Sequence record: OZ035796.1
Strand: one strand, 5' to 3'
Length of the DNA: 64,000 nucleotides
From: Felixounavirus NRG857CP1
Shown: positions 58,900 through 59,047 of the stretch, one piece after another
How the letters are laid out: each line of letters starts with the position of its first letter
Numbering within the stretch: position 1 is the first letter of the stretch
The notes under the pieces: model-generated
The model's database searches: none
The model's input: only the letters and a program-made list of their open reading frames with translations
Told to the model about the DNA's origin: nothing
Position numbers and translations under genes: made by a program

Positions 58900-59047
58900 T
58901 AATTATCTTTGTAGATAAGTTATTAAGCTTACCTGTGAGTATGCGACCACAAAGGGTGAAAGGGTAAATTCTAGATTTAAACCCAACAAGGCACATCGCT
59001 ACAGACCTTAAGCAAGTCTGGGTAGCTTATCTACAAAGATAATTTAA
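58900..59047. repeat. 20-bp inverted repeat flanking a ~107-bp segment
   Basis: TAATTATCTTTGTAGATAAG (58900-58919) and CTTATCTACAAAGATAATTTA (59027-59047) are reverse complements with one indel. Confidence 0.6.

Follow-up and report, generated by a model that had tools for sequence, protein, structure and literature searches.

Structured RNAs that are not transfer RNAs (tRNAs) are known from phage tRNA clusters: the species 1 and 2 RNAs of T4 (rnaC/rnaD), whose function was long unknown, are co-transcribed and co-processed with the phage tRNAs. Bacterial Y RNAs are recognized by their neighbourhood, being encoded at most 4 kb from an ortholog of Ro60, with which they share the strand (Chen et al. 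2014, PMC4201824). In the YrlA type, near-invariant 'T' and 'D' stem-loops have a variable yet paired 'AS' stem-loop between them and a 'V' stem-loop upstream, and the stem with the Ro60 site closes the whole (PMC4201824). A phage can also provide both partners: the Ro60 protein of Thermus phage phiLo binds Y-like RNAs that the phage itself encodes (PMC12135203). Here we analyse a 64,000-nucleotide (nt) stretch of Felixounavirus NRG857CP1 (record OZ035796.1; hereafter the window, to which all positions refer unless another phage is named), in which an inverted repeat within the tRNA cluster lies downstream of a gene for a Ro60-like protein. The ortholog of this protein in phage Bas63, gp130, has been described as Ro60-like and is needed by Bas63 to overcome the ppl defence system; the Bas63 authors guessed that some of the tRNA genes might be Y RNAs, without naming any RNA. 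We propose, with a probability of roughly 0.6, that the inverted repeat forms the helix closing a ~150-nt RNA, a Y-RNA-like partner of the Ro60-like protein.

ARAGORN finds 25 tRNA genes on the + strand of the window, from 57953 onward, and the inverted repeat sits in the 432-nt gap between tRNA-Asp (58540-58616) and tRNA-Lys (59049-59124). Its arms, AATTATCTTTGTAGATAAGTTA and TAGCTTATCTACAAAGATAATT, measure 22 nt each and are separated by 100 nt (Table 1), limits slightly different from those of a preliminary description of the window, made from the sequence alone, that had reported the pair. The arms are non-complementary at a single position; in + strand RNA this position becomes a U.G wobble, and all 22 of 22 pairs can form (21 Watson-Crick and one G.U). 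Two extra U.G pairs (58923-58924 with 59021-59022) could lengthen the helix to 24 base pairs (bp). The computed folding energy of the region is -54.6 kcal/mol for the + strand vs -45.2 kcal/mol for the minus strand.

Over 300 records of related phages have a match to the region. We compared the helix among Felix-type phages, Mooglevirus and Suspvirus (Mordin, Mijalis, Sf14, ESh22, EcSzw-2), the phage that we label L129, and Yersinia phage vB_YenM_P778 (L130); the Ro60-like proteins of the last two are 64% and 54% identical to that of the window, respectively. All compared lineages (at least four, within the Ounavirinae) have a helix of 21-22 bp in the same place, directly before tRNA-Lys, and its sequence differs from one to another. 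The left arm reads AATTATCTTTGTAGATAAGTTA in the window, AATCCTCTTTGCAG-TGACTTA in the Moogle type, ATTATTCTTGTAAGTAAGCTGT in L129 and GTTTTATTTGAAGTGAGTCTTG in P778, the fourth lineage, with a 22-bp helix of unlike sequence; each pairs with its own right arm. In an alignment of 13 distinct sequences, 97.6% of the cells of 23 helix pairs are paired, and eight of the pairs have changed on both sides. None of 500 shuffles attained these values, and sliding the partner by one to three columns lowered the pairing to 35-46%. The Moogle type lacks one base of the left arm and, to match, one of the right arm; G.U pairing accommodates two single-base variants of the Felix type; and RNAalifold yields the same helix independently. 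Pairs of the G.U kind make up 33 of the 293 pair cells and would turn into A-C mismatches if the complementary strand were the one that folds. From these pairs and from the better fold of the + strand it follows that selection acts on an RNA helix of the + strand, which is the strand of the tRNA genes. The long RNA stem envisaged in the preliminary description is thus maintained by compensatory changes in related phages, and the conservation of the arms, on which that description had made its proposal depend, takes the form of pairing preserved across lineages.

Judging from its fold and from the comparison, the RNA would occupy ~150 nt of the + strand (about 58900-59048). Minimum free energy folds of five variants all contain the long stem, a poorly conserved multi-branch interior and a 3'-proximal AGCAA hairpin. 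Within the interior, a small hairpin around ATTCTAGATT is common to the Felix and Moogle types. The 3'-proximal mini-hairpin has a loop conserved across lineages as CUUAAGCAA, CUUUAGCAA or CCUUAGCAA (pattern YYTWAGCAA), carried on a stem that covaries (CAGAC/GUCUG, CAAACC/GGUUUG, CAGUC/GACUG and AAAGUC/GACUUU).

The inverted repeat is surrounded by other repeated structures. The + strand of the tRNA cluster holds four copies of AGAAGACC (58123, 58290, 58679 and 58769), and GGTCTGG comes 52-124 nt after each of them (58188, 58342, 58748 and 58893). These pairs define four modules, M1 to M4, built on one plan: an outer helix that covaries between modules, a 3x1 internal loop with AGA opposite G, and an inner helix AGACCNN/NNGGTCT in which the NN positions covary and whose 5' strand is directly followed by TTACAGCAA or ATGCAGCAA. 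As RNA, the closing stem is AGACCNN/NNGGUCU-G, with UUACAGCAA after the 5' strand. M1 fills the gap between tRNA-Glu and tRNA-Met and M2 that between tRNA-Met and tRNA-Asn, while M3 and M4 share their gap with the inverted repeat; M1-M3, of ~60-80 nt each, are unannotated. We rejected a kink-turn as an explanation of the internal loop, which has no tandem G.A pairs and is ACA/A in the Yersinia phage.

The modules account for the GGTCTGG-type motifs that the preliminary description had placed next to both arms. The motifs are indeed there, GGTCTGG (58893-58899) adjoining the left arm and GTCTGGG (59016-59022) the right arm, each on the 5' side of the arm, and they are the 3' strands of the repeated RNA module, which that description had not seen. 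On the left, the motif is the 3' strand of M4, and the arm begins two bases inside the M4 outer helix. On the right, the mini-hairpin reads CTAC-AGACC-TTA-AGCAA-GTCTGG-GTAG, which by eye is the closing stem and motif of M4 with internal deletions. Exact GGTCTGG is over-represented in the window as a whole (11 occurrences vs 3.7 expected). The mini-hairpin looks like a minimal core of the M1-M4 module, a family membership suggested by the shared sequence, and the inverted-repeat RNA is best explained as the fifth, largest and lineage-specific member of an RNA cluster whose members alternate with tRNA genes.

M4 encloses a tRNA-like domain in permuted order (V, T, acceptor-like hairpin, D). The T and D arms stay the same throughout the 12 variants compared, and the acceptor-like stem, which is ACTCGGC/GTCGAGT, CCCTTC/GAAGGG or ACACG/CGTGT, has three pairs changed on both sides and remains 98.8% paired. 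Rfam reports only a partial tRNA in M4, because the cloverleaf is circularly permuted, and tRNA finders miss it. Order, invariant T and D arms and a variable yet paired acceptor-like stem are those of YrlA (RF02553), and M4 is a putative YrlA-type permuted tRNA mimic. Two other candidates, a permuted tRNA gene needing circularisation and a permuted group I intron-exon arrangement, were rejected: no group I or ribozyme match was found, and the order V-T-AS-D with the stem is that of YrlA.

Table 1. Coordinates of the candidate RNAs, their parts and neighbouring features in the window. R1 is the covariance model described in the text.
Feature	Position	Strand	Structure, score or basis
Ro60-like protein gene, 471 amino acids, DUF2828 helical-repeat N-terminal part and vWA domain (DUF7788)	56372..57787	+	Pfam, fold
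Two sigma-70-like promoters	57806-57834, 57897-57926	+	Consensus match only; ahead of tRNA-Pro
M1	58120..58196	+	Outer GAC/GTC, loop AGA/G, inner AGACCAA/TTGGTCT, then TTACAGCAA; R1 32.6 bits, E 5e-6
M2	58287..58350	+	Outer TGC/GCA, inner AGACCGT/ACGGTCT, then ATGCAGCAA; R1 27.6 bits, E 1e-4
M3	58675..58757	+	Outer GAGC/GCTC, inner AGACCAA/TTGGTCT, then TTACAGCAA; R1 27.4 bits, E 1.3e-4
M4	58765..58902	+	Outer TTAC/GTAA, inner AGACCGT/ACGGTCT, then TTACAGCAA; circularly permuted tRNA-like domain inside
M4 V hairpin	58803-58819	+	Sequence and fold
M4 T arm, GAAGG-TTCGATT-CCTTC, perfect	58824-58840	+	Sequence and fold
M4 acceptor-like 7-bp hairpin, 4-nt loop AGAT	58841-58858	+	Sequence and fold; then TG
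M4 D arm, GTGT-AATGGTA-GCAC	58861-58875	+	Sequence and fold
Left arm, 5' strand of closing helix	58901..58922	+	Repeat search, covariation
Variable multi-branch interior	58923..59001	+	Sequence differs between lineages
Conserved mini-hairpin, stem CAGAC/GTCTG, 9-nt loop CTTAAGCAA	59002..59020	+	Directly 5' of right arm
Right arm, 3' strand of closing helix	59023..59044	+	Ends 4 nt 5' of tRNA-Lys (59049-59124)

The inverted-repeat RNA is encoded 1.1-1.3 kb downstream of the Ro60-like gene and on the same strand; this gene, which went unmentioned in the preliminary description, ends 166 nt before the first tRNA. Its product matches DUF7788 (E 2e-43) and DUF2828 (E 1e-29) in Pfam, and the residues D279, S281 and S283 of the MIDAS (metal ion-dependent adhesion site) motif DxSxS are invariant in the alignment of its homologs. 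An AlphaFold2 model computed with 30 homologs has a predicted local distance difference test (pLDDT) score of 85.5, and the best 12 Foldseek matches of this model in the PDB are full-length Ro60/TROVE structures (E 7e-9 to 7e-7, template modelling scores 0.5-0.64); the model aligns over its full length with 1yvr, 2i91, 2nvo, 9kop and 9l5y, and the matches come from Xenopus, human, Deinococcus and Thermus phage phiLo. The protein is thus predicted to have the full-length Ro60 fold, in which a ring of helical repeats is joined to a C-terminal vWA domain with a MIDAS motif. It differs from Ro60/TROVE proteins in belonging to the DUF2828 branch, and the kinship is visible by fold, the sequence search against Ro60 being marginal (E 0.62). 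Some records label the protein 'RNA-binding protein'. The DUF2828 form is carried by phages of many host groups (709 phage records), and DUF2828 also occurs in mimivirus-like proteins.

Modules are also found beside DUF2828 genes in other phages. We gathered 80 viral contigs encoding relatives of the Ro60-like protein, 75 of them with relatives only 39-48% identical, and scanned these for N[TA]NCAGCAA placed immediately after the 5' strand of a 6-bp helix. A module lay at most 700 nt from the DUF2828 gene on the same strand in 51 of the 75 distant loci, vs 8 of 75 on the opposite strand, and the modules found totalled 143 on the same strand, 39 on the opposite strand and 24 in shuffled sequence. 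Two features that had played no part in the selection recur in the distant modules: a seventh, outer pair covaries (AU 13, UA 7, GC 1, unpaired 1), and 29 of 30 modules have a G as the second base after the 3' strand. The family signature is a stem of 6-7 bp starting with G, followed by UWCAGCAA, and a C-U-G 3' end.

We built the covariance model R1 from modules of the distant, non-Ounavirinae phages only. Its top three matches in the window are M1, M2 and M3; a fourth, at 14048-14081, lies inside a coding region and was treated as a chance match. M4 was missed, although stem and motif are present, because of its 100-nt insert. Permuted tRNA-like domains (T arm, 7-bp acceptor-like hairpin, D arm) also lie within distant modules, for example at 5415-5550 of locus L184 and 3450-3600 of locus L175, and at 3735-3832 of L184 stem and motif surround a tRNA-like body that is not permuted and has a tRNA score of 52.9 bits. 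The module family appears to behave like the Y RNAs of a divergent Ro60 branch, with a signature of its own replacing GGUCCGA/GNCGAA. A pattern scan of viral contigs with AGAAGACCNNNTNCAGCAA was discarded, its single matches being mostly chance and the true modules confined to Felix-like contigs. For the inverted-repeat RNA, nhmmer found no sequence homolog elsewhere, and homology with the ~240-nt 'long modules' of distant phages was rejected after negative nhmmer searches in both directions.

Set against the described systems, the locus shows likenesses and differences. The inverted-repeat RNA and M1-M4 all lie within 4 kb of the Ro60-like gene and on its strand, although the protein is a distant DUF2828 relative and not an annotated TROVE ortholog. 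Several different RNAs are found near the gene for a Ro60-fold protein, as with Yrl1 and Yrl2 of phiLo (PMC12135203). The ends of the inverted-repeat RNA are paired, as in Y RNAs, in a stem of 22-24 bp that closes a large multi-branch loop; compared with YrlA, the RNA has no tRNA-like domain, and its stem is much longer and almost perfect. Also in contrast to Y RNAs, the phage RNAs are embedded in an operon of 25 tRNAs. As candidate non-tRNA RNAs of a tRNA cluster they resemble the species 1 and 2 RNAs of T4, a likeness by description only, and we know of no DUF2828 gene in T4.

Several observations weigh against a partnership of the inverted-repeat RNA with the Ro60-like protein. What ties the two together is neighbourhood and a short shared sequence. 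The canonical Ro60-binding motifs GGUCCGA and GNCGAA are absent from the inverted-repeat RNA and from the stems of M1-M4 (M4 has a GGCGAAGG at its T-arm junction, but it is not conserved, L002 having GGAGAAGG), and the Rfam YrlA model RF02553 gave no match to M4 or the inverted-repeat RNA at E up to 10. The mini-hairpin goes unrecognised by R1, with a score of only 0.5 bits: the stem of the module definition is present, the motif is one base shorter (CUUAAGCAA), and GG follows. The interior is poorly conserved between lineages, and the compensatory changes in the helix stem from just three or four independent lineages. Finally, a scan for a long stem with an adjacent AGCAA hairpin gave matches in Ounavirinae-type loci only, whereas the DUF2828 protein is far more widespread.

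If the inverted repeat does close a Y-RNA-like partner, this RNA would be transcribed within the tRNA operon, which begins shortly downstream of the Ro60-like gene. The upstream promoter-like sites (Table 1) and the result of a consensus scan, in which no + strand terminator-like site precedes the next promoter-like site at 59298, make co-transcription with the tRNAs plausible. The 3' end would be produced by the RNase P cut at the 5' end of tRNA-Lys, and the 5' end by an endonuclease acting right after the CUGG end of M4 or by RNase III within the helix. A near-perfect helix of 22-24 bp has the size of an RNase III substrate, and sensitivity to this enzyme is a plausible prediction. The helix would hold both ends of the RNA together and protect it; the RNA would bind the Ro60-like protein through the AGCAA-containing element, would modulate or target the protein as Y RNAs do, and may have a part in the counter-defence role reported for gp130.

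The same duplex might be a processing hairpin only, an RNase III site parting the upstream RNAs from the tRNA-Lys/Met/Ile block, with the enclosed 100 nt as a spacer. The substrate size, the constancy of the helix at 21-22 bp in all lineages, its abutment on tRNA-Lys and the strong divergence of the interior between lineages all fit such a role, which is the main rival and is compatible with the Y-RNA-like reading, not exclusive of it. As the whole explanation we regard it as unlikely: all four lineages retain, in the interior, a hairpin whose 9-nt loop is conserved and whose stem covaries, the interior's steady size of about 100 nt exceeds the needs of a spacer, and the other inter-tRNA gaps of the operon hold functional-looking RNAs and not bare processing stems. 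It is also conceivable that a stable structured RNA is made that has nothing to do with the Ro60-like protein and serves, say, as a decoy or regulator of another host or phage factor. Such a role would agree with the failure of R1 to score the inverted-repeat RNA and with an architecture confined to the Ounavirinae beside a widespread protein. However, the mini-hairpin has ACAGACC..UUA-AGCAA..GUCUGG in common with the closing stem and motif of M1-M4, and the RNA stands within the module cluster, right after the YrlA-like M4 or, in L129, directly after an M3-like module, so that we find an unrelated role quite improbable.

The footprint of a miniature inverted-repeat transposable element, also put forward in the preliminary description, has in its favour only the outline, ~20-bp terminal inverted repeats around about 100 bp. 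We give it next to no credence. The element is single-copy at a fixed position before tRNA-Lys in 195 phage records and was absent when 5,426 complete E. coli genomes were searched; the search for further arms that had been proposed, run over the window with up to three mismatches, returned no site besides the two arms (0.00 expected from 100 shuffles). The arms covary to keep their pairing, G.U included, rather than copying a consensus terminus, and no target-site duplication is seen in the flanks, GGTCTGGT and TAAT. The nearly perfect complementarity of the Felix-type arms could serve a palindrome acting as DNA, whether as a site for protein binding, as a cruciform or as an origin-like element. 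This we hold to be very improbable, since the G.U cells would be meaningless in duplex DNA, the + strand folds better than the minus strand, and the arm sequences diverge while the pairing stays, where a protein-binding palindrome would conserve its sequence. Lastly, the repeat could be incidental to small proteins of the minus strand. Public annotations leave the gap between tRNA-Asp and tRNA-Lys empty or give it small hypothetical open reading frames (ORFs), and one such frame (58739-58996, 85 amino acids), annotated in several records and equivalent to bas63_0137 and bas63_0138 of the Bas63 annotation, overlaps M4 and the long-stem RNA. Single-base insertions and deletions alter its frame, length and C-terminus among near-identical phages (85, 76, 81 or 50+30 amino acids), it is absent from L129, and the substitutions track base-pairing of the + strand and not codon structure; the ORF is probably a mis-annotation, and an explanation through its products is scarcely tenable. 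Fitness values for bas63_0137 and bas63_0138 were not found in the text of the PhageMaP preprint.

The gap that holds the inverted repeat (58617-59048) is modular among phages, with breakpoints of presence and absence at module boundaries (query positions 144, 260 and 298-320). M3 is missing from some phages and M4 from L129, and the Moogle type has another interior in its long-stem RNA. This pattern suggests recombination between the repeated stems.

Other structures were seen in and around the cluster. Directly 5' of M3, positions 58637-58680 form a 20-bp imperfect hairpin (CTCCTCCCTTAAAGAGTTCT / AGTATTCTTTAAAGGAGCAG), with compensatory changes in L129 (CCATTAAAGGG.../...TTCTTTAATGG) and a counterpart in L130. 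Between tRNA-Lys and tRNA-Met, relatives carry a ~70-nt hairpin (L129 8498-8575, L130 9901-9982, L127 about 2005-2085) with an invariant apex, CUGCGCGGCUGGAAACACCCACUCAA, two covarying stems, fold z-scores of -2.3 to -4.1 and no Rfam match; the window is without it, its tRNA-Lys and tRNA-Met being 4 nt apart. Also within the tRNA cluster, an ORF of 130 amino acids (59702-60094) has a weak match to HNH endonucleases (E 0.0097, under the Pfam cutoff) and is preceded by a strong promoter-like site at 59298-59326. In L129, the region 8672-8978 downstream of tRNA-Ile gave sub-threshold Rfam scores for permuted transfer-messenger RNA (tmRNA; 22 bits) and tmRNA (13.7 bits).

Apart from tRNA, all that Rfam suggested for the modules was the Class I RNAs of Dictyostelium (Dicty_Class_I, RF01414), through weak matches. 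The scores, 12.8 bits for M4, 18 for M2 and 28.9 for a distant module, are under the gathering score of 41.5 bits, and the E of the 28.9-bit match is 0.26 when multiplied over 4,227 families. Class I RNAs, said to be unique to dictyostelids, are defined by an AAG start, a 6-bp covarying stem starting with G, a variable interior and a length of ~60 nt; an 11-nt motif directly follows the 5' strand, with T3, C6, C9, A10 and A11 almost invariant, and the RNA ends in CUGU, in which the C is the pairing partner of the 5' G (Kjellin et al. 2021, PMC7919456). In quality the phage short modules agree with every feature of this definition: they have an (A)AG start and a covarying 6-bp stem starting with G that joins their ends, a median length of 56 nt and a variable, A-rich interior. 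The Class I motif CCUUACAGCAA compares with the phage consensus NNUUACAGCAA, with exact CCTTACAGCAA in many phage loci, and the CUGU end with C-U-G-N. Examples of short modules are UUAGGUUCC-UUACAGCAA...GGAACCUGG and AAAGGAUAG-AUUCAGCAA...CUAUCCUGA; Class I-like ones lie at L145 5410-5470, L172 5611-5667 and L140 5417-5469, among loci L139-L210, and M1-M3 of the window belong with them.

The differences from Class I RNAs are several. The phage RNAs are phage-encoded and would be co-transcribed with tRNAs, whereas Class I RNAs are made from Dictyostelium upstream sequence element (DUSE) promoters. The Felix-type modules add the outer helix and the 3x1 internal loop, while the mini-hairpin in the inverted-repeat RNA is one motif base short and lacks the variable region; as a whole the inverted-repeat RNA is not Class I-like. 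The known partner of Class I RNAs is the RRM protein Rnp1A, with no reported link to a Ro60-like protein. It is a tentative idea, which we judge somewhat against the odds, that the RNAs with the stem, UUACAGCAA and CUG are dedicated partners of the DUF2828 Ro60-like branch and at the same time viral counterparts of the Class I RNAs.

Taken alone, the inverted repeat is of moderate interest; it exposes an undescribed family of RNAs beside a widespread phage protein, of which they are candidate partners. The locus provides concrete Y-RNA candidates with coordinates and predicted structures, namely three short modules, one putative YrlA-type tRNA mimic and one long-stem RNA, and all five lie in gaps annotated as empty or as holding doubtful minus-strand ORFs. 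The signature of stem, UWCAGCAA and CUG is unlike the classical Ro60 site, which hints that the Ro60 superfamily has a second mode of recognition. The match to the Class I RNAs yields a testable hypothesis for abundant eukaryotic RNAs of obscure mechanism: were it true, a Ro/Y-type ribonucleoprotein with its own recognition code would be common to many phage families, possibly giant viruses and one eukaryotic lineage, and the Class I RNAs would be Y-RNA analogues.

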